Shown here: positions 4,040 through 49,364 of the stretch, one piece after another
How the letters are laid out: each line of letters begins with the position of its first letter
Numbering within the stretch: the first letter of the stretch is position 1
Assembly: GCA_030599585.1 (NCBI GenBank)
Contig: JAUVNS010000023.1
Coordinates: forward strand, 1 to 53,560
Direction of reading: 5' to 3'
From: Promethearchaeota archaeon
GTDB taxonomy: Archaea > Asgardarchaeota > Lokiarchaeia > Sigyniarchaeales > SOKP01
DNA: 53,560 nucleotides
Program-made: the position numbers and the translations under genes
Notes under the pieces: generated by a model
What the model saw: only the letters and a program-made list of their open reading frames with translations
Databases searched by the model: none
Told to the model about the DNA's origin: nothing

Positions 4040-4056
4040 TATATAAAAAGAAAAAA
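4040..4056 (-). promoter_or_regulatory. Pyrimidine-BRE class promoter
   Basis: Minus strand TTTTTTCTTTTTATATA upstream of the radical SAM gene. Confidence 0.55.
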
Positions 4057-4082
4057 TCGTAGGTCGCGAATTTTAAGTTTAA

Positions 4083-4343
4083 TTACGTGGATTCTTCTCC
4101 TAAAAGAATTCTCGCCGAGTTCATTAATATTTCGCAATCGCAACATCTCCCGTTTTCTTTACAGATTTCCAGTACTTTTTCTTGATCGGTATAGGATATT
4201 CCCATAGATTCAAGTATTTTCCTTGCGTAAGGAAATTTAGGACCTCCGCACTCCCATTTACCCCCTCCAAATTTGCACTTCCCCTCTAGAGCGTAGAGAA
4301 ATACGTGGAGCTGTAACTGGGAGAGTGGGAAACCTTCCATCAT
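4083..4343 (-). CDS. Small Cys-rich protein (DUF2695-like)
   Basis: C-terminal ENGRCCDCEILMN resembles the DUF2695 GGxCDCEVLxN motif. Confidence 0.6.
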   Translation of the reverse strand: MMEGFPLSQLQLHVFLYALEGKCKFGGGKWECGGPKFPYARKILESMGISYTDQEKVLEICKENGRCCDCEILMNSARILLGEEST

Positions 4344-4364
4344 GTGAGATCAAATACCTTGTTT

Positions 4365-4378
4365 TATTTAAAGAAAAA
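4365..4378 (-). promoter_or_regulatory. Pyrimidine-BRE class promoter
   Basis: Minus strand TTTTTCTTTAAATA, TATA starting 29 nt before ATG 4343 (leaderless spacing). Confidence 0.6.
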
Positions 4379-4379
4379 G

Positions 4380-4613
4380 TTAGCTTTCTTTCCGATGACT
4401 TAAATAGGATTGAAAGTAACTGTACTTATTTTTTTTGTACGGCCTCTCAGGAGCGTTAAGAAAACACGCGGGACAAAAAATTGATAATAGTTTGTCGTTC
4501 CAGACGAGAATGGCGCGTTTTGTGGAATACTGAGGGTGATTTTTTTTAAATTCGTCGAACGAGATACTTTCTTCACAATCAATACAATTCCGATCTTGAG
4601 AAATAGAGGCCAT
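4380..4613 (-). CDS. Small zinc-finger protein
   Basis: CIDC...CPAC pairs, 77 aa. Confidence 0.6.
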   Translation of the reverse strand: MASISQDRNCIDCEESISFDEFKKNHPQYSTKRAILVWNDKLLSIFCPACFLNAPERPYKKNKYSYFQSYLSHRKES

Positions 4614-4892
4614 AGTTGTAGTTCTTAAAAGAACTATATTAAAAATAGATGGGTATTAGCCCAGTAATTTTTCCACTTCTTATCGTTAATAACTGCGAAA
4701 AAAAAAGGTTTAGACGCCCACAACTACAAAATCGTATCCGTACTTAAAGTTTCGTCAGCTCTAAATACGGTAAAGATTTTTTTAATTATCGAAGCCTAAA
4801 CTTTTTTTTGTCAAAAATATAGAATAATCTCGCAAATAAATTTGTATTGTTTTACCTGAGGTATTCACTATTTTTTAAGAAACATAAACTCT

Positions 4893-5846
4893 CTAAGCTT
4901 TCCAAGTCTCAAATATCTCTTCCGACGCTCTATAACGGAAATCGCCAACGCGATCAAACGCGTTTAATTTTAACAGTTTGTACATGCCGCGGTCCAATGC
5001 GCTTAAGTTTTTGTATTTCGCGAATTTGATTTTCGAATTTTTTAATCGAGCGAGCATTTTTTTCGCTTTACTACTCTTCCTTTCGAACGTATACAAATGA
5101 CTCAAAAAAAAGAGAGCCATCTCGTCGTAAGGATAGAGCATCAGGATTTTTCTAAACGCGAGAATCGCGTTCTTGGTATCGTTATTTCTTATATATCTAT
5201 TTGCTAAGACCATGTTGTTGGTATAGTTTTTTGAATCCATCTGGACGAGCGAGTTTAACGCTTTTATTTCCGACCGTAAGTTTTGTGAGCGACCGTAATA
5301 CCCAGCGAGGGAATGAAGCACTTTTTTATCTACAATGCATTGAAAAAGGTCGTCAACGTAGTCGTCTTCCAAAAAACTGAGGAATCCTCCCTCGATTAAA
5401 AAAACTTGTACCGCAGTGGACTTACTTTTAAACCGGACCACAATTTCTTGAACCAAAGCTTCTTTCGCTACGGGGTCTCCAACGCTTGTAAGCTTTTTTA
5501 GCAAAGGGAACGCTAAATTTATGTGACACAAAAGCGTATCGTAATTATTCTCCGCCCACACTTGTAGGTTCGAGCAATGTCCCCTGAATTCTTCTTCCGG
5601 AGTCAACCCAACTTCTTTGGGCGTGATTTCATATTCTAGTTGTTTACCGTAAAACTCGCTTGCTTGGTCGATTGACTCGAAATCGTTAACTTCGGTCAAC
5701 GGAACGTTCGTAAGCAAGTACTTGCAAATTTTAAACGGCTCATTTTTTACATATATAACGGTTTTATTGTGTTCAAACCGTAAGGTTAAAAAATCGTTGA
5801 GCTTAAACTTAACCATAGGATACTTTTTTCTTAACAATTTTAGCAA
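4893..5846 (-). CDS. Lokiarchaeal-type conserved N-terminal domain + TPR-like repeats (true start possibly MVKFKLN near 5816)
   Basis: Same N-terminal domain as 1185-2126, with TPR-like C-terminus. Confidence 0.7.
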   Translation of the reverse strand: MLKLLRKKYPMVKFKLNDFLTLRFEHNKTVIYVKNEPFKICKYLLTNVPLTEVNDFESIDQASEFYGKQLEYEITPKEVGLTPEEEFRGHCSNLQVWAENNYDTLLCHINLAFPLLKKLTSVGDPVAKEALVQEIVVRFKSKSTAVQVFLIEGGFLSFLEDDYVDDLFQCIVDKKVLHSLAGYYGRSQNLRSEIKALNSLVQMDSKNYTNNMVLANRYIRNNDTKNAILAFRKILMLYPYDEMALFFLSHLYTFERKSSKAKKMLARLKNSKIKFAKYKNLSALDRGMYKLLKLNAFDRVGDFRYRASEEIFETWKA

Positions 5847-5930
5847 CGACTTTCCACCGCTTCAATTCAATTATCTTCATTAAATATGTATATTTAAATA
5901 AAAATATAAGACGAGGTCGAATTTAAATTT

Positions 5931-6179
5931 TTATTTGATGTGTTTATCGAAAAATCGTTCTATCTTATCCACGAGCATATCCTTACAGGCAGGATCGTTC
6001 CACTCGCCTCCAGAGAAAAGTTCTTCCTTTTTTGCTTCTAGTTGTAAGCCGTATTTCGCAACGACATAGAACACTCGCGTGTAAAAGCGAGTAAAATCGG
6101 CAACCTCTAATATTTCGTTAATTGCTTCTTGCTTTAGAAACTCTCGGGCTTGTTCCTTTGTGAAATTATTATCGTCCAT
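5931..6179 (-). CDS. Hypothetical protein
   Basis: 82-aa ORF with ATG start and protein-like composition. Confidence 0.6.
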   Translation of the reverse strand: MDDNNFTKEQAREFLKQEAINEILEVADFTRFYTRVFYVVAKYGLQLEAKKEELFSGGEWNDPACKDMLVDKIERFFDKHIK

Positions 6180-6258
6180 CTTAATAAGAAATTTGACTAT
6201 AAAATATATATCTTCTAAGAGTAGAAAATTTTTAAAAAAAAAAAGAAAAATGGTTAAA

Positions 6259-7431
6259 TTACTTTCTTAGGATTCGTTTCTGGACCACGAAGTGAGTTCT
6301 TAGGGGGGTGCTATGTGGAAAGATCGATTTGATTGCGCGGTCGTTATTTGCCCAAATAGTTGTTCCTTCGTAGTAATCGTACCCATAGACGGCTGCTGAA
6401 AGCATTTTTCCAATGTTATGCAAAGCAGAGAATATCCCTTTTCCAGCGTATTCCTTTTTAATGATTACTGTGTCCACGTTCATATGTGTTAGCGGTTCAT
6501 CAGCCCACAACTGATAAAGATTTGGTTGGCACATCAACACTCCAACTAGTTTTCCGGTGCGTTTATCGAACCCAAATACACACGTAGAGACGATGTTATC
6601 GAGATCGGCTGCGTTCCAAGTGTCTAAAAAGCCTGGCATGTCAGCATACGTCTGAGGATCGAAATCAGGGTTGACAATTTTTACTTTTTTGCTGGCCTGA
6701 TCGTAAATTTCCATAATTTCATCGAATCGATCCTTACCTCCTGCGGCGTCAGCTAACACGGCATAGAACGATTGTTGCGCTAATTGCAATATTTGGGGTT
6801 TTAACGCTTTGATTTCGTCGAGAGAGAGGAATCGGGCCATTATGTTGTCGTCTAATTTTTTTCCTTTCTTCCAAGTCGTCATAAACGTATCGACGCATGA
6901 ATATTTGGAATCGATTTTGTAGCCTAAATCTTTTAGATACTCTAGAACACTTGAGTCCGGATCGTTAAACGACACACCGCTCATCATTGGGGCAGTAAAT
7001 CCTTCGGTTTGGAAACCTATCCCTCCGACTTTTTTTGGATAGTTTATTGGGCCTCTGAGCTTTTTGAACTTGTGAACTTTCACGAACTTCTCGCACTCTC
7101 CCATGAGGGATTTACACGCTTCGAAATTTTGCGCGTGTAGCCAACCAAACGTAGGACAACGCATGCCATAACTTCGAAAATCTTGGTCGATTTGACAAAT
7201 CACAAACCCCACCCAAGTTTCGTTTCGAATCGCTGCGAACATTACTATCTCGTCTTCGGGGCTAATAGATTTGTGCTGGTAGAAAGTAATTATCTCGGAC
7301 ACGATTTTGGGCTTTAGCGCCTCGTTTGGAACGTATAAGAGTTCCGTTAAGATTTTTCTGATTTGAGCGGGCTTGCTCACTTCTACTACTTTTACGCTTT
7401 GAACTTGTTTTTTTTGTGTAATTAATTCCAT
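6259..7431 (-). CDS. GNAT-fold (tandem GNAT) N-acyltransferase-like protein; start reassigned to MELITQKK at 7431
   Basis: FGWLHA...KKLRGPIN...LKDLGY and KEYAGKGIFSAL acetyl-CoA-binding motif A. A promoter motif at 7476-7490 lies inside the longer ORF call and upstream of this ATG. Confidence 0.7.
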   Translation of the reverse strand: MELITQKKQVQSVKVVEVSKPAQIRKILTELLYVPNEALKPKIVSEIITFYQHKSISPEDEIVMFAAIRNETWVGFVICQIDQDFRSYGMRCPTFGWLHAQNFEACKSLMGECEKFVKVHKFKKLRGPINYPKKVGGIGFQTEGFTAPMMSGVSFNDPDSSVLEYLKDLGYKIDSKYSCVDTFMTTWKKGKKLDDNIMARFLSLDEIKALKPQILQLAQQSFYAVLADAAGGKDRFDEIMEIYDQASKKVKIVNPDFDPQTYADMPGFLDTWNAADLDNIVSTCVFGFDKRTGKLVGVLMCQPNLYQLWADEPLTHMNVDTVIIKKEYAGKGIFSALHNIGKMLSAAVYGYDYYEGTTIWANNDRAIKSIFPHSTPLRTHFVVQKRILRK

Positions 7432-7475: not shown

Positions 7476-7490
7476 TATTTAAAGAAAAAA
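7476..7490 (-). promoter_or_regulatory. Pyrimidine-BRE class promoter
   Basis: Minus strand TTTTTTCTTTAAATA. Confidence 0.55.
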
Positions 7491-8081: not shown

Positions 8082-9320
8082 TTAAGTATTTATTTGCACA
8101 TTCAACATATCTACTAATTCTTGTCCCGCCGGAAGAAGTTCAGGTCTTGGAACGTTTCCTTCGAAGTAATTAAACACTACGTAATCTTCAAACGATTTAT
8201 CCTCTTTTCTGTAAGACCAACAAGGCATGTATCCCCTTGCTCTAAACCCGAACTCGTAAAATAATTGTTGGTGCTCCGGACTGAAGGCAGAAACGAACAC
8301 TTCGCTGTATCTAATACTGTTTTCTTTGATAACCTTTAGAAACTCTTCTAAATATACGTAAAGTTCTTCAGGCGAATTCACGTGATATTTAGTTTTTTCG
8401 AGGTTCTGAATGCAGGGAGTATGTAAAAAAGAAAAATAGGATTTTGTTCCTGTAATAAAAAACTGAAAGTATTGATAGCCGTACTTATCTTTGATTACGT
8501 CTTTCCTAAACTTTTTTTGCATGGAAGCAATTTTTTGGTAATCTAAGTGTAAATCGGGAGAGACTAACTGAAAATTTCCTAAATTATATAGGTTGTCGCA
8601 ATGTAAAAAACTGTCCAACGCGTTTCTGATAAGAAGCGGTGTCTGATGTTCCCGATATCCGTTGAGAGCTTTTTCCCTAAATACGACGCCCATCACGTCG
8701 GATTCTACCTTGTTAAAAAACACGTCCTTGTTAGGAAAGAACGCTACGGTGTTTATTCCGCACACAGAAGTTATGTATTGCGAAGCTGCGTGGGCCGTTC
8801 TGTTCTCGCAATACCACATGAGTATCTCGTCCTTATAAGTGCTCCACATCCACGCGTAGGAACCGATAATGGATTTGGTAACGTCGATAATTCCTTGGTA
8901 TTCTTTTCTAACCATAAAACCGCCGGTGTATCCTTTTCGGTTTTCGAAGTCTAACGCGCACCTGAAACAGCCAACTATATCCTCTTCGATCTTAAAGAGA
9001 ATGAAGTGATTTTCGGGACTTTCGATCATCTTTTTTACTTCTTTCGGATCTTCTATCTCTTTATATGGATATTTGCCTTCGTATACTTCCTTACAAATAG
9101 TAGAAATTTCAACTGCGTCTTTAGGCTTGGCTAGGTATAGGGTAGGGCTAATTTTATCCGAACCTAACTTAGAATCGATGGTAAAATCTAACTCCATACC
9201 TTTTTCCAGGTCGAGATCTAAAACGTGTAGAAAAACGTCTAAAAATTCGTCTACCGACCCGGGGTTGAGTTTCTGGTGCGAAATTATTTTAGGGATAGAA
9301 ATTGTTTCTGGGCTGATCAT
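8082..9320 (-). CDS. GNAT-family acyltransferase-like protein
   Basis: AKPKDAVEI..ICKEVY...YPY...GGFMVRKEYQG and C-terminal FYEFGFRARGYMP. Confidence 0.7.
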   Translation of the reverse strand: MISPETISIPKIISHQKLNPGSVDEFLDVFLHVLDLDLEKGMELDFTIDSKLGSDKISPTLYLAKPKDAVEISTICKEVYEGKYPYKEIEDPKEVKKMIESPENHFILFKIEEDIVGCFRCALDFENRKGYTGGFMVRKEYQGIIDVTKSIIGSYAWMWSTYKDEILMWYCENRTAHAASQYITSVCGINTVAFFPNKDVFFNKVESDVMGVVFREKALNGYREHQTPLLIRNALDSFLHCDNLYNLGNFQLVSPDLHLDYQKIASMQKKFRKDVIKDKYGYQYFQFFITGTKSYFSFLHTPCIQNLEKTKYHVNSPEELYVYLEEFLKVIKENSIRYSEVFVSAFSPEHQQLFYEFGFRARGYMPCWSYRKEDKSFEDYVVFNYFEGNVPRPELLPAGQELVDMLNVQINT

Positions 9321-9372: not shown

Positions 9373-9386
9373 TATATAAAGGAAAA
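9373..9386 (-). promoter_or_regulatory. Pyrimidine-BRE class promoter
   Basis: Minus strand TTTTCCTTTATATA in a divergent intergenic region. Confidence 0.6.
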
Positions 9387-9472
9387 GAGGATTAATATCA
9401 GAAAAAATCAGATTCCAAAAATAATATATTGCGAGTGTTTTAATTCTAACTTCAAAAAATTTTACAAAGTCG

Positions 9473-9488
9473 TTTTTTTCTTTATATA
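9473..9488 (+). promoter_or_regulatory. Pyrimidine-BRE class promoter
   Basis: TTTTTTTCTTTATATA upstream of the ThiF gene, in a divergent region. Confidence 0.6.
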
Positions 9489-9556: not shown

Positions 9557-10426
9557 ATGTTTACTAATCAAAAATTAGAATCGTGGTCAGAACCCTATTG
9601 GGAACACGTTATAAGAAACATAGGACCTATAACCTTCGACGAGCAAGAAACGATAAGAACTTCGCGAGTTGCAGTGCTCGGAGTAGGCGGGTTAGGCGGT
9701 CCGCTCGCAGAAAATTTGGTAAGAGCAGGCTGTCAAAACTTAGTAATATGTGACTTTGATGTTTTCGACGAGTCCAACCTAAACCGGCAGATTTGCACAA
9801 TCGAGGACATCGGTAAGAGAAAAATAGATGTGGTAGCGGAGTTTTTACAAAAAATCGATCCTGAAGTAAGCGTGAGAAAATTTTTTAAGATTTCTCAACG
9901 AAACATTGATGCGGTCCTTGAGGGCGTGAAAGTAATTGCGCTAACCTTAGACGATCCTGCTACTTCCATCTTTATTGCTAGAGAGGCTCGGAAGCGTGGA
10001 ATTCCTATGATAGAGTCTTGGGGCGTGCCGTTCTTGTTTACGTGGTGGTTTGCTCCCGAGAGCGTAGATTACGAAGAATGTTACGGGTTAGAAACCAAAA
10101 AGTTCGACTATTTCGAGCTTTCCAACCTAAAAAAAGAGATCAACCTCGCAACTTACCAAGCTTTATTGCCAAAAGTATTTTCGATGCCAGGAGTCAGGGA
10201 AAAATACGACCGAGAACCTGGAGCGTTCGAAGAAATGATGGCGGGCAACATCGGAGCTCGCTCGTTTGCGCCTTTTGTCCGAATAACTGCAGATTTTCTT
10301 TCGGTAGACGTAATTTTCTCGGGAATTCTAAGCGTAAAACCGAAGAACTTAGCTCCAAACTTGAAAGGGTTCGATTACATCAACATGGAAGTCCTAGAAA
10401 CTAAACTAATACCTAATATTCTTTAA
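9557..10426 (+). CDS. ThiF/E1-like adenylyltransferase
   Basis: RNIG...EQETIRTSRVAVLGVGGLGG...DFDVFDESNLNRQ...GKRK. Lacks the C-terminal CxxC zinc pairs of MoeB. Confidence 0.85.
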   Translation: MFTNQKLESWSEPYWEHVIRNIGPITFDEQETIRTSRVAVLGVGGLGGPLAENLVRAGCQNLVICDFDVFDESNLNRQICTIEDIGKRKIDVVAEFLQKIDPEVSVRKFFKISQRNIDAVLEGVKVIALTLDDPATSIFIAREARKRGIPMIESWGVPFLFTWWFAPESVDYEECYGLETKKFDYFELSNLKKEINLATYQALLPKVFSMPGVREKYDREPGAFEEMMAGNIGARSFAPFVRITADFLSVDVIFSGILSVKPKNLAPNLKGFDYINMEVLETKLIPNIL

Positions 10427-10453
10427 CTATACCTAAATTTTTTTCTTTTTATT

Positions 10454-10545: not shown

Positions 10546-12687
10546 TTAAATGATTTCCTTAAGATAAGCGATGAAATCGATCAAAACTTTATAATCCGAA
10601 CCTATACTATCAACTGTTGATTTCGGATAATGTATTGATAGATACACGTTTTTGTTTCTTACTCGTTTTCCGTCCACAAGTCGTCTTACTAAAAATTGGT
10701 AAACTATATTAGTTCTATCACGTGTTAAATGAACTTCATAATTATAATCCCTAATAGTATCATCATTATGGAGATAAGCAAAACCATATTGTTTGAATAC
10801 TTCTTTTCCTTCAATAAAAAATAAACCCAAATTTTTAACTAGATCTTTCTCTATATCATCATTTCCTCTAAATTCGTGATAATTTTCGAAAATATCAATA
10901 ATCAGTTTGAAGATATATTTTATTTTATATTTGAACTTTCTAACTACTATTGTCTCACCAAAGTTATCACGATTATTATTCCTTAATCTTTTCTCAATTT
11001 GAATATTGTCCTCTAGCGAAAAGCTTTCCGACCCTCCATATTCCCCAATGTTTGTAAAAAATAGAATTAAATCCTTATAATCTTTGTAATCATGAAGGAA
11101 TAAATTTGAATGAAAAGGATAAACCTTTCCTGTTAAGGATGGGATTACTACATAATCTACATTATTTTTCCATACCCAATCAGATAAGATTTTATTAAAT
11201 CGTAAAAAATCTTTACATATTAATATAGCAATTCTACCGATACTTGTCATAAATATATTAATTTTCGCTAGTTTTTGACAAATTATATTCTCTTTTTCAT
11301 ATTTATTCTTAATACTATCAAAGATCCAAACTGGTGTTTGTTTTAATTGAAAATCTATGTTTCCATTATCAATTACAAAAGCACAATTTTGAAATAAACC
11401 ATTTTCTTTATTTCTAGTGTGCTCTAACCCCCCTACAATTACTAAATTTTCTTTCTCTGTTATCTTCTTTAATGAAGGAATTATACTATGTGGGATTGAA
11501 TTCTCCGGAAAAATAATTAAACTAGGTTTGAGAGGATTGAATTTTATAGAGAGGTCTATCAATTCTTCAATCTTTCTAGTAACTCGATGTTTTAATTTAT
11601 TATCATATGCTAAGATTCTATTTCTCTTTCTTTGTTTAATTGACCAAAAATGATCAAGAAAAAAATGAAAATGTCCTAGTTTTTCCTCTTTTAATGGTAA
11701 TTCAGGAGGATTTATTCCCTTTAATGAATGTAACTGTATTAAGTGGACAATTCCCACTTTATCTGTAGGAAAATGCGGATAAGAGAAAGGGGGATACCTT
11801 TTTAAGAGACTTTTACTAACTGGGGTTGTCTCTAAAAATACTCTATTCTGTTTCCATCGGTATTCTTGATTTTCTCGATGTGTCCCGATATTAACAAAAT
11901 CAATATCTTCTAATTTTAATAATGATTTTTCAAAGTTCTTTATATTCTCCTCTGGAGTTATAGTTGTATCATATAATTCTAAATTTTCAGGTTCACCTCT
12001 TTTTTTTCTTCTACAATATTCTACGATTTGCTGAGGATGTGAATAAAAACGACCCCAATATCTATCTGCAGCTTTAAAATAAGGAGAATCTATTCTAAGT
12101 GTCACTAACTTAGTTAGTTTTTCTAATCCACTAATATCTCTTAAGGGATTTCCGCTTAAGTTTAAATATTCTAAGTTAGTAAGGGTCTCAAGTCCATTAA
12201 TATGTTTAATTTGATTATGGTTTAAGTCCAAAAACTTCAAGTTATTCAATTGATTTATATTTTCAATTGAATTCAGATGGTTTCTAGAAAGGTCTAACCA
12301 TTCAAGGTGGTCTAAATGATTTAAATTCTCAATTTTTGTAATCCCATTAACAGCTAAGTATAAATATCTTAAATTTATTTGCGCGTCTAGCCCAGAAATT
12401 TTAGTAATTTCGTTACCTCCTAAATTAATTGCTTGTAACCTATTTAGATTTTCTATATTACTAATTTCGGAAATCTCATTCTCTGAGAGATATAACTCTT
12501 TTAAATTCGTGAGTTTCTCAATATTTCCGATTTCTTTAATATTGTTATTACTCAAAATTAAGGCTACAAGATTAGATAAATTTTCAAGACCAGAAACAGC
12601 TGAAAGATCTGAGATATTTCTGTCTGACAGATTCAAGATTTCATAAGTGATCTTTATCTCTTCACCATTAAAATTAAAAACGCTCAT
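10546..12687 (-). CDS. Leucine-rich-repeat protein fused to a carbon-nitrogen hydrolase (nitrilase) domain
   Basis: About 8 LxxLxLxxNxI repeats, then IIFPENS...QLKQTP...ILICKDF (Glu-Lys-Cys triad pattern). Confidence 0.8.
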   Translation of the reverse strand: MSVFNFNGEEIKITYEILNLSDRNISDLSAVSGLENLSNLVALILSNNNIKEIGNIEKLTNLKELYLSENEISEISNIENLNRLQAINLGGNEITKISGLDAQINLRYLYLAVNGITKIENLNHLDHLEWLDLSRNHLNSIENINQLNNLKFLDLNHNQIKHINGLETLTNLEYLNLSGNPLRDISGLEKLTKLVTLRIDSPYFKAADRYWGRFYSHPQQIVEYCRRKKRGEPENLELYDTTITPEENIKNFEKSLLKLEDIDFVNIGTHRENQEYRWKQNRVFLETTPVSKSLLKRYPPFSYPHFPTDKVGIVHLIQLHSLKGINPPELPLKEEKLGHFHFFLDHFWSIKQRKRNRILAYDNKLKHRVTRKIEELIDLSIKFNPLKPSLIIFPENSIPHSIIPSLKKITEKENLVIVGGLEHTRNKENGLFQNCAFVIDNGNIDFQLKQTPVWIFDSIKNKYEKENIICQKLAKINIFMTSIGRIAILICKDFLRFNKILSDWVWKNNVDYVVIPSLTGKVYPFHSNLFLHDYKDYKDLILFFTNIGEYGGSESFSLEDNIQIEKRLRNNNRDNFGETIVVRKFKYKIKYIFKLIIDIFENYHEFRGNDDIEKDLVKNLGLFFIEGKEVFKQYGFAYLHNDDTIRDYNYEVHLTRDRTNIVYQFLVRRLVDGKRVRNKNVYLSIHYPKSTVDSIGSDYKVLIDFIAYLKEII

Positions 12688-12834
12688 AATTTACTTTCAA
12701 TCCAAAATTAATTCAATTGGTTCTAATAATTGAATAATAAAAGATTCAATTTTTACCTTTTTACATAAATTAATACCTAATCATATTTTAAGATTGTAAA
12801 AAAATATTTTTTAACTTAACTAATTTTTTTTTTC

Positions 12835-12886
12835 ATTCTTTAGATAACTCATTTTTAACATTTGAGACTAATTGGAGAGCAAAAAG
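12835..12886 (+). repeat. Intergenic direct repeat, copy 2
   Basis: Matches 10454-10506. Confidence 0.8.
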
Positions 12887-12891
12887 CTTAC

Positions 12892-32443: not shown

Positions 32444-32444
32444 T

Positions 32445-36164: not shown

Positions 36165-36167
36165 AAT

Positions 36168-40858: not shown

Positions 40859-43834
40859 TTATTTTGGAGTTCGCTTATTTTTGAACAGTTTAGTTATTAT
40901 TTTAATCCGAACCACTTTAGAAGTGCTAGATAAAGATATCGAAATCGCTCCTATCATCCCTATCGCTAATGGAATGGTTATTACGGCGTCTGCTTGGTAA
41001 AGATCGGTAGGATCGTTCTCAAGGTCAGGATCGGGATCGGGGTCGGGATTGGAATTAGGATCGATATAATCGAAGGTTGCGTTGCAGACGAACTGGGAGT
41101 CCCCTAAGTAAGGATCGTTAAGAAAAAATTCGAAATAATAGTTTCCGTAATAGTTTGGCGAGTAATCGAAGGTAAACGTCGAACTCTCTAAGGAATGAGA
41201 TAATGATAAGTCTATTACGTCGACATAACCCCCGTCACGATACACGTTGGCATACATCAAGCCATCGAAGATCGGTTCGTCTCCTGAAATAAAAGCGTGG
41301 CGTCCATAAATATTGGCTTGGATACGAGATTCGGTCTTTACGATCGAATACGAGAAAAAAGAATCAAATTCGGTAGTAAAAGAGAACGGAACGCTCGCTT
41401 TTTTTATGGCTCCGTCGTACACGCACAACTCCCCAGCCACAATTGGATAATTACCGGTATCAATAGACACATATACCATTTTCTGGTAAGTATAGTTGCT
41501 TAATTGGTCCAGTAATATTGTTCCTAATTGTGTGGACTCTATTTTAACCGTGGTATATTGTCCAAAATCAGAAAGTATGAGGTTCACCAATTCGACCGAG
41601 AACAAATTGTTGCTTCCTAAACCAATAGTATCGTAATAAGAAGTGCTCAATCTCAAGTTGTCAGTCTTTGCTATTTCGCATAACCACGTAAATACGTCAT
41701 GCTCCAACTCCCTTCTATCAATGGTGAGATAAAATTCGTTGTATATATCAGAATATATGTTTTGAACCAGTAAGTGCGTTTGCTCAACGTCGAATTGAAT
41801 ACCTAAGGCCAACGATTCCGAAATTTTATAGCTGTAATAAAGATTTTTTACATTTGAATAGTTCAGGTGATTTATTATGAAATTACTAATTTTATTTGAG
41901 TTCAGGTTGTATTGTTCGGTCAAGTTTAAAACAAATATCGCGTAATATAAGTTTTCTAATATCAATTCTACGCTATCGGAGTATTTAGCGTCAAAATATA
42001 ACTCGGTCGGAGTCTCCACGAGGTTCCTAGTAATGTAAGTCCCAAGCGCGGTTTTATCGAATCCTAGATCGGCGAAATACTGGCTATTTATGTTTCCTAG
42101 TCCCAGATATTGACTAATAAGTTCCATCGTTTGTATGGCATAATAAGAGTTTTTCAAGTAGACTAGATCGTTTTTCCACTCGGAAGAAGAGTTAATATTA
42201 ATATTAATTAAGAACCCTCCAAAGTTATCGATGTAGCTCAGATCGAGGAATTGCGAGGTGATCACGTCCTGTAAAACTGTATGTAGATCGTAGAGAGAGG
42301 CAAAGTCGTTTAATTTAAAAATTTTCCTTAAGGAGTCGAGAGATTTGAAAATATTTTGGTGAGAACTTATCAAATTGATCTCGTCTACGAATTCGTGATG
42401 TCCAGCAGTATCGTAGTCGAACGGTTTCGAGCGAAAACTCGCCTTCTCCAAATTCATACCGGTACACGCGAAAAAATCGTAATTACCACCACGATCTACA
42501 ACAGTGTCTACGAGTAAGTCGTATATAGATTGAATGTCAAGCTCTCCAATTTTGCCGAAGTATTCGTAAGACGATACTAGGTTATAGAGCAGGTCTATAG
42601 ATGTGTAATCCTCTGAAAGCAAAGAATATCCGCGCTCTTGAACAAACAAAGAAATAAACGAAGAGATATCGTTTCTATCCCCTAGCGAGAACCCTGAAAC
42701 ATCTCCTGTTTCCGAAAGCGATCGTACAATTTGGAAGGTGTCGATAAGTTCGTGATAACTCACCGAAGTCGAAGCTTCCCAACCCCCGCGATAATTTCGA
42801 TTGTTAACTATAAAGGCTAAGGCGTCGCTTCTCACAAAAGAAGTAAAACCCGTAATATCTGCTAGTTCTAAATTGATCGCAGTAGAAACGATGTTAGAAT
42901 AGTTAGCCGCCCACATTGAATCTGATACGTCAAAGTATGCTCCTTCGGAATGGTATAGCGCTGTAAGGTGCTGGTGAAACTTGGTAATATCAATAACATC
43001 AACGTAGCTACTTCCAAAGGTTTCTAACGTTTTCACGCAATAATAGGAAGCAAATTGGTTTGGCTCTGGCTCCATTAACGAGTCGAACATGCTTTCGTAA
43101 TCGTTATAAAAGCCAGTAGAAGAGCCTAACGATTGTAAACCGTCAATGTAAGACGTTATATCGCTCCTTTCTTGGGAATGTGCGTTCCAATCAACGCCTA
43201 AAGTATCTAAAGTAAGAACGGCGTAGTAGGTGTTGTCTGCGGTAGGGATTTTAAATCCTTCTTCTAACGAGCTATCGTAAGACTGTCCTATAAATCCATA
43301 CAAATATGGGTGATAACTATCCCAAATAAAATCGATCATGTCCGCAATATTTATCGAATTAACGGCATTCAAAATGTTCAAGGAAAGTACGGCGTAGCAA
43401 TTGACTTGTAAAAGCGTAGACAAAGGGTAATACCTGCCAGGTATTTTTGAAGCTAAGTATCTATCAGAATTTTTGTCCGAAAATATGTGGGAACTGGAGT
43501 TGTAAAACGATAAAACGTAGTTAATTACCGCTTGTTGGTCGATATCCCCTAACTTTCCGATAGCGTCTAAGACGTAGATCGCGTAATAAGTCGCTTGAAG
43601 AGAGTCCGAATAAATCTGAGGGTAATAGCCGTATGTTGCGTAATCGGCGTTTTTTGCGTCAAAAACTGATTGCAAAGTCTCGAGGTTCGAGGCATCAGAG
43701 GTGGCCAACAAGTCAAAATTTTCGTTTTGTGTTTCACTTGGATTTGCGAAAGTTCTTACGCCAATTGTTGAAACACAAGCTAAAACTACAATTAACACAA
43801 TGCTAACTAAAACTAGATGTTTTTTCCATTTCAT
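40859..43834 (-). CDS. Secreted, membrane-anchored prenyltransferase/squalene-oxidase-repeat (alpha/alpha barrel) surface protein
   Basis: Signal peptide, repeated TYYAxxxLxxL / GGF motifs, DPNSNPDPDPDPD linker, C-terminal TM and basic tail. Confidence 0.75.
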   Translation of the reverse strand: MKWKKHLVLVSIVLIVVLACVSTIGVRTFANPSETQNENFDLLATSDASNLETLQSVFDAKNADYATYGYYPQIYSDSLQATYYAIYVLDAIGKLGDIDQQAVINYVLSFYNSSSHIFSDKNSDRYLASKIPGRYYPLSTLLQVNCYAVLSLNILNAVNSINIADMIDFIWDSYHPYLYGFIGQSYDSSLEEGFKIPTADNTYYAVLTLDTLGVDWNAHSQERSDITSYIDGLQSLGSSTGFYNDYESMFDSLMEPEPNQFASYYCVKTLETFGSSYVDVIDITKFHQHLTALYHSEGAYFDVSDSMWAANYSNIVSTAINLELADITGFTSFVRSDALAFIVNNRNYRGGWEASTSVSYHELIDTFQIVRSLSETGDVSGFSLGDRNDISSFISLFVQERGYSLLSEDYTSIDLLYNLVSSYEYFGKIGELDIQSIYDLLVDTVVDRGGNYDFFACTGMNLEKASFRSKPFDYDTAGHHEFVDEINLISSHQNIFKSLDSLRKIFKLNDFASLYDLHTVLQDVITSQFLDLSYIDNFGGFLINININSSSEWKNDLVYLKNSYYAIQTMELISQYLGLGNINSQYFADLGFDKTALGTYITRNLVETPTELYFDAKYSDSVELILENLYYAIFVLNLTEQYNLNSNKISNFIINHLNYSNVKNLYYSYKISESLALGIQFDVEQTHLLVQNIYSDIYNEFYLTIDRRELEHDVFTWLCEIAKTDNLRLSTSYYDTIGLGSNNLFSVELVNLILSDFGQYTTVKIESTQLGTILLDQLSNYTYQKMVYVSIDTGNYPIVAGELCVYDGAIKKASVPFSFTTEFDSFFSYSIVKTESRIQANIYGRHAFISGDEPIFDGLMYANVYRDGGYVDVIDLSLSHSLESSTFTFDYSPNYYGNYYFEFFLNDPYLGDSQFVCNATFDYIDPNSNPDPDPDPDLENDPTDLYQADAVITIPLAIGMIGAISISLSSTSKVVRIKIITKLFKNKRTPK

Positions 43835-43888: not shown

Positions 43889-43903
43889 TATATAAAGAAA
43901 AAA
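43889..43903 (-). promoter_or_regulatory. Pyrimidine-BRE class promoter
   Basis: Minus strand TTTTTTCTTTATATA in a divergent region. Confidence 0.6.
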
Positions 43904-43972: not shown

Positions 43973-44515
43973 ATGCAAATGAAATTAATTGAAATTATCG
44001 AGAAAGAACTTAATGAATCGGGTGCGATGGATATTTATAAGCGCATACGACTAAAAATTGACGAATTGAAAACATCTTGTGGGTTTGAATGTAAGATGTG
44101 TGGTAGGTGTTGCACTCCTAACGTAGATCTTTCTGAAGAAGATTTTTTTTATATGAAAGAGAAAAAAGCAAATCTGGAAGGCGTTGAAACATGGAAAGCC
44201 TCTGATGGTAGTTTAATGCCAAAAAAGAGTTTAAAGCATAAATTAGGCAGTTTAGGATATAAAAACACAGGAATTTGTTTTTATGAGGTAGAGAAATCCG
44301 AGAAAACTCTGTGTAAGATTCATCCAAATAATCCTTTAGTATGCCATAGTTTTCCTTTTGTTGTTAATTTATCAACTAAATTTTTTATGATAAAAGATAG
44401 TTGTACTTGGATGAAAGAAAATTTTGAATTTTTTTCTGTGAAAATTAAATATGTTAAAGAAATTAGAGATTTGATTGAAGAGTATTGGTACGCACTAGAA
44501 AGATATACAGAATAG
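43973..44515 (+). CDS. YkgJ-family (CxxCxxCC) Fe-S/Zn cluster protein
   Basis: FECKMCGRCC...C.FY...CKIH..NPLVCHSFPF. Canonical GAAAAGATTTTTTATA promoter at 43921. Confidence 0.85.
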   Translation: MQMKLIEIIEKELNESGAMDIYKRIRLKIDELKTSCGFECKMCGRCCTPNVDLSEEDFFYMKEKKANLEGVETWKASDGSLMPKKSLKHKLGSLGYKNTGICFYEVEKSEKTLCKIHPNNPLVCHSFPFVVNLSTKFFMIKDSCTWMKENFEFFSVKIKYVKEIRDLIEEYWYALERYTE

Positions 44516-44586: not shown

Positions 44587-45861
44587 TCAACAAACCGATG
44601 GTGGACCGGTTGGGTTGTGATATTTCCACAGTTCGACTTTCACGCCCTCCTCATCCATATTATCTTTTTTGTTAGATAAAGAAGCGTCTTGAAAGTTCGT
44701 TGAACTATCTTCTATTTCGTTATTTTGATTTTTGGCAACCGAGGCAACTAAATACCCGCTTGCGTCTTTTACAACGAAGTAATATTCCTCGCTCTCGTTT
44801 AAGTTGTTAAACACTTGACTTGCGTCCCCTAAGATTATCTGAACTATGTCGTCGCACTGTGCCTCGTCCTCTGAAATTTCACTAACGTCTATAAACGCAG
44901 GATCTAATACGCCTAATTTAATCATAACTCTTTTTAATAAACCAGCGGATTTTACGAGGCTTAGAAAACCCGGAACGTTAAGCCTTTGAATAACTTTTTT
45001 CTCGACTTGCCTGTGAATCGTTGACATTTTAACGCCTAAACGCTTGCAAATTGCGCTCACGCTCACTTCTTTCTTCTGGGAGCAGAGAAGCGTAATAGAA
45101 GTCACCAAGCCCACTACTACGTCGTCCTTAGTGTTTTTTATGACTTCGTAAAACCTGTCAAGTATCCGCTTCGATTGGTAGTAGAACGACATCCCCAGAT
45201 TGAAGTGTTCGCTGACCTCCAAAATTCTTTCTTTAATGTATTGCTTGCGATCTCGCTCTTGATACTCTGGCCAGATGCGAATAATCGAAAATTTAAAAGA
45301 GTTGAAATCGTTTTTTGAAACCTTGGACACCCCCAAAAGTTCTTTCTCGCTAATTGGTTTACCATTCTCTTTGTAGTACGCGTAAATAACGCAAGGGACT
45401 AACATTTCTGGACTTCTATATTTCGTTCCTTTGCCTAAATTAGCTCGAAATTGTTTAACTTTGCTAACAATTACCTCTACATCGCCTGAGGAGAAGCCTA
45501 ACGCGGTTAAAATTCGTTTTGCCTCCACTTTTATCGCAATATTAAATGTTTCTTCGGTAGGTCGGGAAGAGTCTATCTTGCTTAGACCTTCTAATTTCGC
45601 TGAATGTTGCATCCTTCTTCTTTCAGACCTAAATCCGATTTGTGTTTTTCCTAACACGGCGTATTGGACGATGTCTGCGTCGTACGGTCGGTGGTATTCT
45701 AATTTTTGTATTTCTAACACTATTCCACAAGCTCGACAAGTGTAACCTTCTTGAGTTTCTATTACGTCGGTAGAGCCACAGACATCGCATTGATACTGGG
45801 ACTCGAGACCTGAGATAATTTTTAACGATTTTATTTTATCAGCACTATGAGGTGTTGCCAT
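44587..45861 (-). CDS. tfb: Divergent transcription initiation factor IIB (TFB) paralog
   Basis: Zn ribbon CDVCGS...YTCRACGIVL, two cyclin-like repeats (YRSPEMLVPCVIY...PISEKEL; VSAICKRLGVKMSTI) and an acidic C-terminal extension. Confidence 0.8.
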   Translation of the reverse strand: MATPHSADKIKSLKIISGLESQYQCDVCGSTDVIETQEGYTCRACGIVLEIQKLEYHRPYDADIVQYAVLGKTQIGFRSERRRMQHSAKLEGLSKIDSSRPTEETFNIAIKVEAKRILTALGFSSGDVEVIVSKVKQFRANLGKGTKYRSPEMLVPCVIYAYYKENGKPISEKELLGVSKVSKNDFNSFKFSIIRIWPEYQERDRKQYIKERILEVSEHFNLGMSFYYQSKRILDRFYEVIKNTKDDVVVGLVTSITLLCSQKKEVSVSAICKRLGVKMSTIHRQVEKKVIQRLNVPGFLSLVKSAGLLKRVMIKLGVLDPAFIDVSEISEDEAQCDDIVQIILGDASQVFNNLNESEEYYFVVKDASGYLVASVAKNQNNEIEDSSTNFQDASLSNKKDNMDEEGVKVELWKYHNPTGPPSVC

Positions 45862-46529
45862 TTTTTTTCAACTTTTTTGTATTTTTTTGTAAAAACTTAC
45901 GATTACATTTTAATTAAAGAATTAAGATCACCAGTTTGCTATTTGAAGATTTGCTTCGAGCAATAAACACCTAGAAAGGTAAGAGATAATCAAACGATTA
46001 GCGAAAATTGAATCGAAATGTAACTATAAATTTTAGTTAATCCGTGTATTTAGTTGATTCCGTTCTATAGAACAAAGATAAATTGTGCATTTTTTCGTCA
46101 AAATCACAATTTTGCAATTCTATTCCAAATTAGGATATTTTTTGGATCATAGGCGCTAAAGTTACAGCTTAAATTGGGAGTATAAAGAGAATCGTAATGG
46201 AAATCTCGAGTTTATGACAATCTATATATCACTAGTATTGTGATTATACTAATAATTCTTATAGAATTATAATCTAAACGAACTGAAACCAATTTTCATA
46301 AATAATTAAACTTGGATTATTATTCTACGACTTTTCTTAAGTCTTCCGTTGAGGTTATTTTTAATTCCTAGGTTCGGTTATACGCTCAAAAGATCACTCA
46401 AAGTTGAGATTTTGAGTTTTTGATGCTTTTCTACTTTTTATTGCACTTTGATCTCTTTTTTTGAAATGATCTTTTTAAATCCCACGAATTTTTTCCAAAG
46501 AATTTTTTCTAATTTTTTTCTTCCTGAAA

Positions 46530-46543
46530 TTTTTTCTTTATAT
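46530..46543 (+). promoter_or_regulatory. Pyrimidine-BRE class promoter
   Basis: TTTTTTCTTTATAT, about 35 nt before ATG 46572. Confidence 0.6.
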
Positions 46544-46571
46544 GCTTCCTTAGCGTGACCAAATTACAATT

Positions 46572-47336
46572 ATGATAATGTTATATTTTTGGTTTTTTGT
46601 GTTATTAGTTGCCTCCGGCGCAATTCGAGCCCTCTACGGGTTAGCACATACGCCCGGTTACAAGTTATTTTTTAACTTGATAGCTATAGTTGGGGTGTTC
46701 GTCCACGAAGTAGCGCACTATACGGTGTCGCTTATTGTAGGCGGGAACCCCGGTAAAATACGGGTGAAATATCGAAACGAGGATAAAACGAGGGTATCGC
46801 CTCACGGATCGGTCAGCAATCCGGAATTCAAAAGGCAATCGGTCCTGCAAGCGTTTAGTATCAGTTTTGCCCCTCTTTTGGTATCCACTTTACTATTTAT
46901 GTTTTGCTTAGACGTTGTCTTTCACATCCAAACCGATCTCTGGGTAAAAGTAGTGGCAATTATTTTTAGCGTGTCGTTAGTGTTTGGCTTAAAACCTTCG
47001 GGACAAGACGCGAAAGTAGTCGGCTACGCGTATCAAAACGATCCTCGTTATTCGGTGTATCAAATATTTCTCTTACTATTATCGGGAGTGTTAGTGTGGT
47101 TATTTGTAGATTTATATTTTATTGTTCTACCCTTCGAGGTAATGTATTACGTCGAATATGTACTGGTTTTAGTCGTGTTTTACTTCGGGCTAAAAGCTTT
47201 GTTTTGGTTAGCCGGTAGAATTATAGGGAGCGTAGCTAAAAAATTGGGAAAAGCTCAAGTGTCAAGCCCTAAATTCCTTACCCGAAGAAGAAGGTTTAAA
47301 TACATAAAAGATTCTAACGAAAGAGAGGTGCAATAA
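46572..47336 (+). CDS. Membrane zinc metalloprotease (M50/site-2-like)
   Basis: GVFVHEVAH (HExxH) in TM context, ISFAPL, PSGQD. Confidence 0.75.
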   Translation: MIMLYFWFFVLLVASGAIRALYGLAHTPGYKLFFNLIAIVGVFVHEVAHYTVSLIVGGNPGKIRVKYRNEDKTRVSPHGSVSNPEFKRQSVLQAFSISFAPLLVSTLLFMFCLDVVFHIQTDLWVKVVAIIFSVSLVFGLKPSGQDAKVVGYAYQNDPRYSVYQIFLLLLSGVLVWLFVDLYFIVLPFEVMYYVEYVLVLVVFYFGLKALFWLAGRIIGSVAKKLGKAQVSSPKFLTRRRRFKYIKDSNEREVQ

Positions 47337-47341
47337 TAAAT

Positions 47342-47686
47342 ATGAAAGGTTTTTGTTTAATCGCAATAATAATCGCTATGCTGATGTTTTACCAGAGAGA
47401 GCCCATCTACACGGTAATTATAGTCGGGATTGGTCTGGCGTTATACATCGTTTACAAGGCAAGAAAAGGCGGTAATGGAACGATCGGCTCTTTTTTTAGC
47501 GGCAATCAATCGCGTCAAGACAACAGGTTAGACGATTTAATTGCTCTGATGATGCTCCAACAACTCTCCTCGACCAATTCTCAGAGCATGGGCGCTTCTG
47601 AGCAAATTTCTGAACAATCTCGAAAGCGACGAGAAGCGATCGAAAAGACGCAAAAAGAAACATTAGACTTACTGAGCGGTGATTGA
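47342..47686 (+). CDS. Small membrane protein
   Basis: N-terminal TM hairpin. Stop overlaps the radB start. Confidence 0.65.
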   Translation: MKGFCLIAIIIAMLMFYQREPIYTVIIVGIGLALYIVYKARKGGNGTIGSFFSGNQSRQDNRLDDLIALMMLQQLSSTNSQSMGASEQISEQSRKRREAIEKTQKETLDLLSGD

Positions 47687-48393
47687 AACTGGATACCTTT
47701 GACATAGCTTCTTTACTAAATTTGTTAAAAGAACGTAGAATCGTTTCGATCTCGGGAGAATCGGGCACCGGAAAAACCACATTAGCCTTACAGTTGGTCG
47801 CTTCTGCGTTAACTCAAGAGGACGGGAGCAAGAACCAAGCTTTATGGGTCCAAGCCAGCGAACAATTTCCCAAAAAACGGCTTCAAGTACTTTTTAAAAA
47901 TTCTCATGATAGCTATAAAGCCCTCCTGAAAAGAATTTTTGTATATCCAGGAACGAATCCTTTTTTGGATTATCAAACCCAGTCGACTTTTTTTACAAAC
48001 TTGGTATCCGTGATTTTGCCGTTTAACACTAAATACATCGTAATTGATAACATATCCCACTATCTAAGGTTTGCTGCTTCGTGTTGCTCCGATGTAAAAC
48101 AAAAGATGGCGCTCTTAGACGATTTTTTTAGCTCGCAGCTATTTCCCCTTATAATGCGTTGTCTAAGGGAAGAGATCGTTCTCGTGTTAATACACGAAGT
48201 CTCTTTTGACCCTGCGCTAGGAAAAAATCAACCGTTTTTTAACAAACTCTACTCGAGGATCAACAGCGTAAACGTAAGCTTGTCGAAACCGTTCGGTTCT
48301 AAAATTAAATTGATGGAACTCGCCTCGCGGGACGAGATAATTTCGAAAGACGTAAGATACATGATTAAAAATAAAGGAATTTCTCTAGTTTAA
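47683..48393 (+). CDS. radB: RadB-like RecA-fold ATPase
   Basis: ISGESGTGKTTLALQ, WVQASEQFPKKRL, IVIDNIS. Lacks the RadA N-terminal domain. Confidence 0.7.
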   Translation: MKLDTFDIASLLNLLKERRIVSISGESGTGKTTLALQLVASALTQEDGSKNQALWVQASEQFPKKRLQVLFKNSHDSYKALLKRIFVYPGTNPFLDYQTQSTFFTNLVSVILPFNTKYIVIDNISHYLRFAASCCSDVKQKMALLDDFFSSQLFPLIMRCLREEIVLVLIHEVSFDPALGKNQPFFNKLYSRINSVNVSLSKPFGSKIKLMELASRDEIISKDVRYMIKNKGISLV

Positions 48394-48439
48394 GACTAAA
48401 TGGCTATATAAAGCAAAAATTTCGCCTTCTTATTTTTTC

Positions 48440-48453
48440 TTTTCCTTTAAATA
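48440..48453 (+). promoter_or_regulatory. Pyrimidine-BRE class promoter
   Basis: TTTTCCTTTAAATA, TATA starting 29 nt before ATG 48475. Confidence 0.6.
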
Positions 48454-48474
48454 GTTCTACGTAGTATCTAGTGC

Positions 48475-48852
48475 ATGATCAAAGCGCCTGATTCTAAAAC
48501 TTCGCGAAGCATTAAATGTTCCATCTGTCGATCCGGGATTAAAGACCTCCGAACAATGTATCAATCAAGTTTAAAATTGGGAGTAATCTGTAAAGTTTGT
48601 CGGGAGCGATTCTCTGAAGAAGATATCGAGATGATCGTAAACCTTTTTTTTGCCTTTGGTGGATATTTCGGACAATTCGACAAATCCGACTTTTCCATGG
48701 ACGAAACAATCTTCGAATTTGCTGAAAAGTTAAGCGCAGGTAATTCTACTTTTCACGCCCAGAACGTGAAGATGTGGCACAAAATATTAACGCACGGCAT
48801 CGTCCCTAAAGAGTTTTTAGAAGAACTCTCTGTTATAGCGGAACAAGAGTAA
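48475..48852 (+). CDS. Zinc-binding hypothetical protein
   Basis: CSIC...CKVC. Confidence 0.7.
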   Translation: MIKAPDSKTSRSIKCSICRSGIKDLRTMYQSSLKLGVICKVCRERFSEEDIEMIVNLFFAFGGYFGQFDKSDFSMDETIFEFAEKLSAGNSTFHAQNVKMWHKILTHGIVPKEFLEELSVIAEQE

Positions 48853-49042
48853 GGTATACAACAGTTCCGAAATTCTTAGTTCTTAATCTTTTCAAATTTA
48901 TTATTGTTTCACTTTTCAACTTAGTAAAGTTTTATTAATTAATTATATTTTTTATTTACTACAAAGAAAATAGTTCAAAATAATGTTTTGGAAAACAAAT
49001 AGTCACAATTCATGCAATCTACTACGAGGAGGTGACATGTGA

Positions 49043-49219
49043 ATGAAGGTTGATTTATTGATATATAATACAATTTTGTTGATTATAGGTTTAATTTTAT
49101 TGTTTATCGTATTAGTTTTAGGCGTTGTAATAATTGCATTAGTAGTTAATAATTTTGTAATGTACGCAATAATTTATTTATACATAAATGAAAGAGCGGA
49201 CACGAATTCCAAGGTTTGA
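49043..49219 (+). CDS. Small hydrophobic membrane peptide (58 aa), not in the ORF track
   Basis: MKVDLLIYNTILLIIGLILLFIVLVLGVVIIALVVNNFVMYAIIYLYINERADTNSKV, with strong SD GAGGAGGTGA upstream. Confidence 0.5.
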   Translation: MKVDLLIYNTILLIIGLILLFIVLVLGVVIIALVVNNFVMYAIIYLYINERADTNSKV

Positions 49220-49348
49220 TTCTCTTTCTCCTTGTTTTTTTAATTTTTTTTTAGCTTTATTATGAGCGAGTCAAAATTAAATATAGTTTCTAGGTGCTTC
49301 ATTTACAAATAATATCTTATCTAATGGGATTATTAAGGAACAGCTATC

Positions 49349-49364
49349 TTTTTTTCTTTAAATA
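49349..49364 (+). promoter_or_regulatory. Pyrimidine-BRE class promoter of radA
   Basis: TTTTTTTCTTTAAATA. Confidence 0.6.

Follow-up and report, generated by a model that had tools for sequence, protein, structure and literature searches.

Contig JAUVNS010000023.1 of a Loki-type (Promethearchaeia) Asgard archaeon (assembly GCA_030599585.1, 4.85 Mb in 52 contigs) was analysed over its entire length of 53,560 nt, referred to below as the window or C49. It is a fragment of a genomic island of about 65–70 kb, of which the assembly holds three diverged copies (C49, C12 and C20). Most of the conserved transcription units of the island are led by the motif T(5-6)-C/CC-TTTAWATA, in which a T-run ending in C or CC stands directly 5' of a TATA box. 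The motif is very probably a real and distinct directional promoter class, under selection and limited to the island regulon. The window also encodes a divergent factor of the TFB/TFIIB family (44587–45861, minus strand; 424 aa), the candidate reader of the motif.

C49 is collinear with C12 at 11–54 kb (80–93% DNA identity) and with C20 at 238–272 kb (70–79%). The C20 copy occupies about 234–302 kb within a 411 kb contig and is characterized by a raised GC content. Windows of 20 kb dense in the motif were also detected inside large contigs, namely in C20 at 238–302 kb and at the end of C9. In the near-closed genomes of two relatives (G054 and G116), multiple island copies were located on one contig.

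Genes and promoter sites of the island

A scan of the window with a position weight matrix (PWM) revealed 17 gene-leading copies of the motif scoring at least 14, a weak copy that is nevertheless conserved, and two copies followed only by small open reading frames (ORFs). The preliminary description of this DNA had listed 15 positions, and the motif was confirmed at each of them, on the same strand as the gene it precedes, the site at 33274 being weak (TTTTTCCTTTTTAAC); the copies at 5891–5905(−), 6229–6243(−), 25540–25554(+), 31041–31055(+) and 48405–48419(−) extend that list.

At the left end, the site TTTTTTCTTTTTATA (4042–4056, minus strand; PWM 17.7) was located 69 nt before the gene of a B12/radical-SAM enzyme (2286–3980, minus strand), and the same motif was present at the C12 and C20 orthologues. 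A PWM match at 2560–2574(+), inside and antisense to this gene, is off the promoter pattern. The copy at 4365–4379(−) (PWM 19.9) has its TATA box 29 nt before the ATG of 4083–4343 (DUF2695), which is leaderless spacing. A weaker island-type site with A instead of C at −1 (5891–5905, minus strand; PWM 14.1) precedes the TPR-family gene 4893–5846, and a T-run followed by TTTAAAAA (6229–6243, minus strand; PWM 14.7), not retained in C12, precedes the small gene 5931–6179. The site at 7476–7490(−) (PWM 20.5) was found 52 nt before the true start (7431) of the gene 6259–7431, whose C12 and C20 orthologues carry the motif and begin 43 codons into the longest ORF. The site at 9373–9387(−) (PWM 20.0), before 8082–9320, is the divergent partner of 9474–9488(+) (PWM 20.5), which leads the gene of a ThiF/E1-like enzyme (9557–10426, plus strand) and is kept at −74/−75 in C12 and C20. 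A further PWM match, 10439–10453(+), lies directly past the ThiF stop codon, off the promoter pattern, and is probably a T-run terminator.

The operon running from 19933 to 13621 is led by the site at 19984–19998(−) (PWM 18.7), with a 15-mer identical in C12 and C20. It includes the gene of a 1277-aa core protein (14502–18335, minus strand) that matched nothing in Pfam or NCBIfam; among named Atlas clusters, the nearest (score 0.90–0.92) are DUF87/HerA/FtsK/TrwB-type ATPases, which is a lead only and makes it a HerA/FtsK-like candidate. The first gene of this operon (19183–19933, minus strand) consists of two overlapping frames (177 and 130 aa) in C49 and of single ORFs of 249–250 aa in C12 and C20, the split being due either to a frameshift in the C49 copy or to an assembly error. 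The gene of an HHH protein of 601 aa (21403–23208, minus strand) follows 36 nt behind the site at 23237–23251(−), which scored 20.5 in all three copies.

The Hel308-type helicase gene (25851–28382, plus strand) is preceded by the site at 25772–25786(+) (PWM 17.3 in all three copies), and the motif was the only block of its upstream region conserved across species. Close by, a 29-codon ORF (25576–25665, plus strand) begins exactly 29 nt after the box of the island-type promoter at 25540–25554(+) (PWM 16.6). The C-terminal half of its product is hydrophobic, and the stretch 25536–25736 is 92% identical in C12. This ORF may be an unannotated leaderless micro-protein or the locus a small RNA of the regulon. 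The site at 31041–31055(+) (PWM 14.7) precedes the zinc-ribbon gene 31104–31535. The weak variant at 33274–33288(+) (TTTTTCC followed by TTTTTAAC; PWM 10.2) lies 33 nt before 33314–33598, its 15-mer being identical in C12 and C20, and the site at 33606–33620(+) (PWM 14.3) precedes 33666–33926.

The operon running from 38945 to 35637, encoding a 191-aa protein (38370–38945), a Hef-type helicase (36168–38363, minus strand; Hef model, 569 bits) and a zinc-ribbon protein, starts 30 nt after the site at 38968–38982(−) (PWM 14.5 in all three copies). The 991-aa gene 40859–43834 is led by 43889–43903(−) (PWM 20.5). The site at 46530–46544(+) (PWM 18.1) was located 35 nt before the operon 46572–48393, the last gene of which (47683–48393, plus strand) matched the RadB model and encodes a RadB-like ATPase. 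Downstream of it, an island-type promoter directed antisense into the RadB-like gene (48405–48419, minus strand; PWM 15.1) stands back to back with 48439–48453(+) (PWM 20.0; identical in C12 and C20), which lies at the leaderless distance of 29 nt before 48475–48852. The two sites of this pair (48405–48453) are 20 nt apart, and the minus-strand one is 50 nt 5' of a 37-codon ORF (48249–48362) at the 3' end of the RadB-like gene. Pairs with a spacing of about 20 nt were also seen in at least 10 other genomes, suggesting that an antisense transcript is conserved. The last site, 49350–49364(+) (PWM 20.5), precedes a Rad51/RadA paralogue (49424–50275, plus strand; Rad51, E 9.5e-59) and its HHH partner (50268–50693).

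The regulon is a second set of DNA-transaction proteins, with repair, DNA uptake or DNA transfer as candidate roles. It also includes several small uncharacterised conserved proteins (33314–33598, 33666–33926 and 48475–48852).

Specificity and conservation of the motif

A search with TTTTTCYTTTAWATA allowing up to two mismatches gave 28 matches in the window versus 9.1 ± 3.0 in shuffled sequences, and none of 100 shuffles reached 28. The density of the motif was 0.39/kb in C49 and 0.42/kb in C12 against 0.05/kb on five background contigs, a difference of about 8-fold; near-exact copies occurred at 0.19/kb and 0.18/kb, respectively, versus 0.034/kb genome-wide. On C49 and C12, the nucleotides 5' of gene-proximal TTTAWATA were T in 75–92% of cases at positions −6 to −3 and C in 58–68% at −1, whereas the remaining 419 genomic TATA contexts had a flat upstream profile save for a weak A preference at −3. 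Positions −7 to −1 of the motif read T-T-T-T-T-Y-C. Thus, as had been proposed from the first inspection of the sequence, a T-run plus C or CC occupies the place of the B recognition element (BRE), no A-rich or purine BRE being present there, and the element is rare away from the island. The C at −1 followed the T-run in 45–54% of cases, compared with about 15% on background contigs.

The host's own canonical BRE was looked for at TATA-like words with leaderless spacing on background contigs, and the upstream profile was flat; aragorn detected only 17 tRNA genes, too few for a promoter reference set. The 'canonical' host promoter is accordingly taken here from its literature description and from four AAAAG boxes of the window.

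The motif was found to follow the conserved genes. It leads 14 of the 17 unit-leading genes with orthologues in C12 or C20 and none of the 14 unit-leading genes present only in C49 (p 3.5e-6), and at the conserved genes its offset is nearly equal across the island copies. Between C49 and C20, identity reached 94% over the 15 motif positions versus 59% over the rest of the upstream 110 nt (p 3e-25); the corresponding values for C49 and C12 were 95% and 70%.

Promoter geometry was analysed for 387 motif copies in 23 island copies from 21 genomes. The majority of them (276) were intergenic with a same-strand start codon within 150 nt, and only 28 fell inside ORFs. Measured from the first T of the box, the distance to the start codon showed a sharp spike at 29–30 nt (54 sites, 39 of them at exactly 29) and a second mode at 50–64 nt. 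The spike is as expected for leaderless mRNAs, with transcription starts predicted from the spacing, and it agrees with the leaderless spacing claimed earlier for sites of the window, where distances of 29, 30, 33, 35 and 36 nt were confirmed. A total of 66 copies were located in divergent gaps, where no co-directional gene precedes them; the T-run is therefore more than a terminator, as had been argued from the window's own divergent copies (9373−/9474+, 19984−, 23237− and 43889−). On the other side, 113 of the 276 sites lie within 150 nt past a co-directional gene.

The preliminary description had proposed a check for conservation upstream of orthologues in relatives, and this was borne out. 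The neighbourhoods of the factor gene were examined in 20 other species (factor 37–71% identical), and 19 of them carried 0.22–0.68 motif matches/kb against a background of 0.05/kb; reversed-sequence controls gave 0–5 matches versus 6–27 in the forward orientation. The island of G017 is collinear with the core of C49 and has motifs at equivalent unit starts. In the closed chromosome of G093 (CP070831.1), a block with the Hel308-like and 1277-aa genes keeps its motifs 750 kb from the factor locus, so the signal travels with the genes and would be read in trans.

Of the 126 genomes sampled from this one family of Loki-type Asgard archaea, 90 contained the factor and 94 the 1277-aa core protein; neither was detected in any of the 24 genomes sampled from six other families belonging to the class. 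The ratio of exact motif matches to reversed controls was 0.92 outside the family, 1.9–2.0 in genomes with one or two factor matches and 3.07 in those with three or more, a relation that is descriptive because related genomes are not independent. Such genome-wide exact counts are blunt: G017 and G023 carry the factor and show no overall excess, yet their local enrichment is clear. Allowing one mismatch loses the signal in AT-rich genomes. The motif class is neither the general promoter of this organism, nor a terminator, nor AT-rich noise.

A divergent TFB homologue as candidate reader

The factor gene is conserved in all three island copies and is the one conserved unit that lacks the island motif in each of them. 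A profile of 21 homologues compared by hhalign with the 10 canonical TFBs of the genome gave a probability of 96% (E 4.4e-9; 259 columns, residues 18–284), the alignment running from the zinc ribbon via both cyclin repeats to the C-terminal helix-turn-helix (HTH). The best PDB matches obtained with Foldseek were all TFIIB, Brf or TFB (E 5e-6), among them the TFB of P. woesei on BRE/TATA DNA (1d3u_B, TM 0.53). The zinc-ribbon residues C25, C28, C42 and C45 were invariant in the 21 homologues. In Pfam, only sub-threshold hints were obtained, for Zn_Ribbon_TF (19.8 bits; cut-off 29), cyclin and HTH. The protein carries an extra C-terminal part of about 130 residues.

The HTH of the factor sits at the place aligned with the BRE-reading HTH of the second cyclin repeat. 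Its recognition helix reads K/R-M-S-T-I-H/Q-x-Q-V in every member of the family, with M-S-T-I invariant (KMSTIHRQV in the window copy), and all 10 canonical TFBs share T-E-V-T-L/I-R-x-R-Y (e.g., TEVTLRSRY), the V and R of which are base-contacting residues in TFIIB. The protein can be described as a TFB homologue in which the recognition helix is replaced while the zinc ribbon and two cyclin folds are intact. The conservation of a different helix alongside the ribbon and cyclin folds suggests that DNA is still read by this protein rather than that reading was lost.

The promoter of the factor gene (45905–45960, minus strand) is of another type, with the box TTCAAATA at 45940–45947 and the blocks CAAACTGGTGATC at 45926–45938 and ATTCTTTAATTA at 45911–45922. 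Across the family, the pattern consists of a mostly purine-rich stretch, a TTYAAAWA box, CAAACT-S-S-T directly after the box and ATTCTT...TAG near the expected start. It is conserved though the factor proteins are only 36–100% identical, the purine-rich stretch before the box being present in most clades. The CAAACT block is perhaps a putative operator for repressor gating, and the difference between the two promoter types suggests a cascade in which the factor is produced by host machinery and then activates the island.

We slightly favour a model in which the motif is the core promoter of a family-restricted recombination/repair island, with the island TFB-family factor as its proposed reader. 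An ordinary TATA box is retained, and the 6–7 bp upstream of it, the usual place of the A-rich BRE, form on the coding strand a T-run that ends in C or CC. The island factor would bind TBP-bent DNA, read the altered element with its replaced HTH and recruit RNA polymerase through the intact zinc ribbon. Since its own gene stands behind a different, purine-rich promoter followed by a conserved operator-like block, the timing of its production would be set by host machinery, which is probably controlled by a repressor; once made, the factor would switch on the whole regulon. The broader proposal of an orthogonal initiation channel, in which a rewired TFB-family factor recognises a strand-inverted pyrimidine BRE and drives a private recombination and repair regulon, as an archaeal analogue of an alternative sigma factor, may hold or fail with equal probability.

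Several observations weigh against the factor as the reader. The AlphaFold model was of only moderate confidence, with a pLDDT (predicted local distance difference test) of 56 overall and 70–86 in core residues 100–295. The Pfam TFIIB cyclin model (E ≤ 0.01) misses the factor, though it detects the 10 canonical TFB genes of the genome. The B-reader region departs from the canonical B-reader/B-linker, being about 18 residues shorter than in canonical TFBs and having a different, strongly conserved sequence, LEYHRPYDADIVQ. The type of the recognition helix (H or Q) did not co-vary with C at −1 (54% vs. 45%, p 0.2), and family genomes without a detected factor still had a motif/control ratio of 1.44. 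Moreover, in the 99% complete genome G072, which has a motif-rich island (0.61/kb), the two usual flanking genes of the factor adjoin each other divergently at a distance of about 350 bp, and each has a motif of its own. Searches of the G072 assembly and of this contig with the family profile, a distant C9-type paralogue query and a TFB profile scan found no factor or TFB-like ORF, and a replacement factor of any of these three kinds was thus rejected. The G072 island belongs to a deep lineage (its 1277-aa protein is 32–36% identical to all others), so the loss of the factor cannot be called recent. G067 and G062 also lacked a factor match, but their contigs end near the expected site. Because no factor was detected in G072 and helix and motif do not co-vary, the claim that the island factor reads the motif is given only an even chance or marginally better.

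A less probable but tenable explanation is that the regulon-specific signal is real and has another reader, either one of the host's 7–10 canonical TFB paralogues or an activator or repressor acting just upstream of TATA. The persistence of the motif in G072 and its excess in factor-less family genomes, together with the missing helix/motif co-variation, fit this explanation, and the three small conserved island proteins mentioned above could bind DNA. The island factor might then be, e.g., a co-activator that reads no sequence itself, like Sulfolobus TFB3, for which PMC7289017 provides the precedent of a paralogue activating in trans. However, one and the same recognition helix is found in all 10 canonical TFBs of this genome, which leaves no obvious reader for a strand-inverted element among them, and canonical TFBs are similarly numerous in factor-plus and factor-minus genomes (about 6–7 each). 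The retention of the zinc ribbon, cyclin folds and a strictly conserved different helix also speaks for the island factor itself.

It is unlikely that the T-run acts without a dedicated reader, as a bent or easily melted tract aiding TBP/TFB or as a terminator or insulator of the upstream gene. Archaeal terminators are T-runs, and both the sites following a co-directional gene and the terminator-like match just past the ThiF stop codon would suit such a role; it is at odds with the sites in divergent gaps, with the excess of C at −1 and with an element fixed in register with TATA and limited to one regulon, and a general structural aid should show at host promoters too. An artefact of shared ancestry or composition, i.e., promoters duplicated in a GC-richer segment or a mis-binned contig, is largely refuted and very improbable: the window is one of three homologous copies, the fragmented second copy set suggests duplication or co-binning and the bin contamination estimate is 8.9%, but the motif is common to unrelated genes, stays at 94% identity where flanks fall to 59%, far exceeds its reversed controls and recurs in 19 other species, and the C20 copy is embedded in a chromosomal contig of 411 kb, which rules out mis-binning.

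A second and distant group of proteins, combining a cyclin core with an HTH, was found at C9:326327–327781, C9:334104–335963 and C10:6298–8076, 25–28% identical to the factor over about 180 residues. Their HTH sequences are GIRQSSLHKSI, GICQSTIYTSV and GVTQSSLYAHF. Neither C9 protein has a zinc ribbon, and the C10 protein has several ribbons of the TFIIB type. Their locus is another motif-rich region (C9:315–343 kb), paralleled by C10 at 84–90% identity.

Related systems and the island backbone

Promoter choice via TFB paralogues is already known in archaea, and the multiple TFBs and TBPs of haloarchaea are reportedly such a case, with TFB paralogues selecting promoter subsets (Facciotti 2007; Turkarslan 2011). 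In the cell-division regulon of Sulfolobus TFB2, the targets of TFB2 and TFB1 have BREs that 'appeared similar' and are distinguished chiefly by their spacing (bioRxiv 10.64898/2026.09.06.749720). The island would resemble these systems in the sigma-factor-like choice of promoter subsets by paralogues, and is unlike them in having an element that is restricted to a single island and inverted in its strand composition. A sharply different element stands at the BRE position throughout the regulon, and the candidate reader has a corresponding change in precisely the predicted BRE-reading helix. A literature search, which did not cover all journals, returned nothing relevant on Asgard promoter motifs or maps of transcription starts.

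With the canonical archaeal core promoter of BRE plus TATA (PDB 1d3u), the island promoter shares an 8-bp consensus TATA, a direction-fixing element of 6–7 bp upstream and a spacing fitting predicted starts about 25 nt downstream, and its candidate reader is laid out like a TFB. In PMC7289017 the BRE is described as A-enriched, whereas the island element is pyrimidine (T-run plus C/CC) on the coding strand, and the candidate reader differs by its replaced helix, shorter B-reader and extended C-terminus. Sulfolobus TFB3 is a DNA-damage-induced TFB paralogue that reportedly acts in trans together with canonical TFB and has no private promoter element (Paytubi and White 2009; Feng et al. 2018; Schult et al. 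2018, via PMC7289017). TFB3 and the island factor are both non-housekeeping TFB paralogues tied to a DNA-damage or DNA-transaction regulon; the island targets, unlike those of TFB3, share a sharply defined element, and the island factor keeps both cyclin folds and the HTH.

TFB homologues are also encoded by the Asgard viruses or mobile elements WyrdV1, 10H_0 and 7H_42, to which the paper describing them links no promoter motif (bioRxiv 10.1101/2021.07.29.453957). In both cases extra TFB-family genes reside on accessory DNA, but relatives of the factor family were not found on IMG/VR viral contigs, and the island has no border tRNA and is present in most family genomes. No tRNA genes were detected on C49 or C12 or near the C20 island, including its borders, and no integrase or capsid domains among the window genes, island borders and the remainder being only partly annotated. 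A provirus or integrated mobile element was therefore unsupported, as tRNA/att borders, an integrase and viral hallmark genes were lacking in what was examined. The parallel with bacterial alternative sigma factors, where a dedicated factor made from a housekeeping-type promoter turns on genes with a private promoter, is an analogy only, since the proteins and promoter architecture are unrelated.

Asgard archaea are the archaeal lineage closest to eukaryotes, in which TFIIB, Brf and Rrn7 serve three polymerases. In the published cases of TFB paralogues considered here, the BREs look alike and the mechanism of specificity is unclear. If the proposed reading by the island factor is correct, the island would be the cleanest natural system for a TFIIB-family factor gaining a new promoter specificity, and an example of the divergence of this family (TFIIB, Brf, Rrn7) toward separate promoter classes. 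The motif can also serve in annotating transcription units, small ORFs and antisense promoters of the island in about 90 genomes, and it points to a co-regulated second set of recombination proteins with a damage response, DNA uptake or DNA transfer as candidate roles.

The assembly contains two parallel versions of the island regions at 84–93% DNA identity, one contiguous and the other fragmented (C51/C49/C6/C37/C52/C23/C38 vs. C12, and C10 vs. the end of C9). C51, C49, C6/C37, C52/C23 and C38 jointly parallel C12 at 85–93% identity. In view of the contamination estimate given above, the parallel set represents either recent paralogous copies or two co-binned strains.

Sequences private to C49 were identified at 10546–13554, 20094–21377, 23306–25360, 28389–33247, 34508–35614, 38991–40736, 43973–44515 and 51028–53020. 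Their cargo genes all lack the island promoter and include a leucine-rich repeat protein, a Kelch propeller, an HNH endonuclease, a DUF5655/HSDR_N protein, a CxxCxxCC protein and several unknowns. The preliminary description had assigned canonical AAAAG plus TATA-like boxes to accessory genes at five positions; four of them, 2197(−), 30910(−), 43921(+) and 50971(+), indeed precede non-core genes, while the fifth, at 25509, is a poor match located about 140 nt from its gene. Likewise, the idea of a regulon served by a different basal factor gained a distinct promoter class and a candidate divergent TFB homologue encoded in the window, but one correction was needed: rather than a regulon dispersed among housekeeping genes, the motif marks the conserved backbone of a multi-copy, family-wide island for DNA recombination and repair, and the accessory genes are insertions private to the C49 copy. 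The backbone seems to serve as a landing pad for cargo genes.

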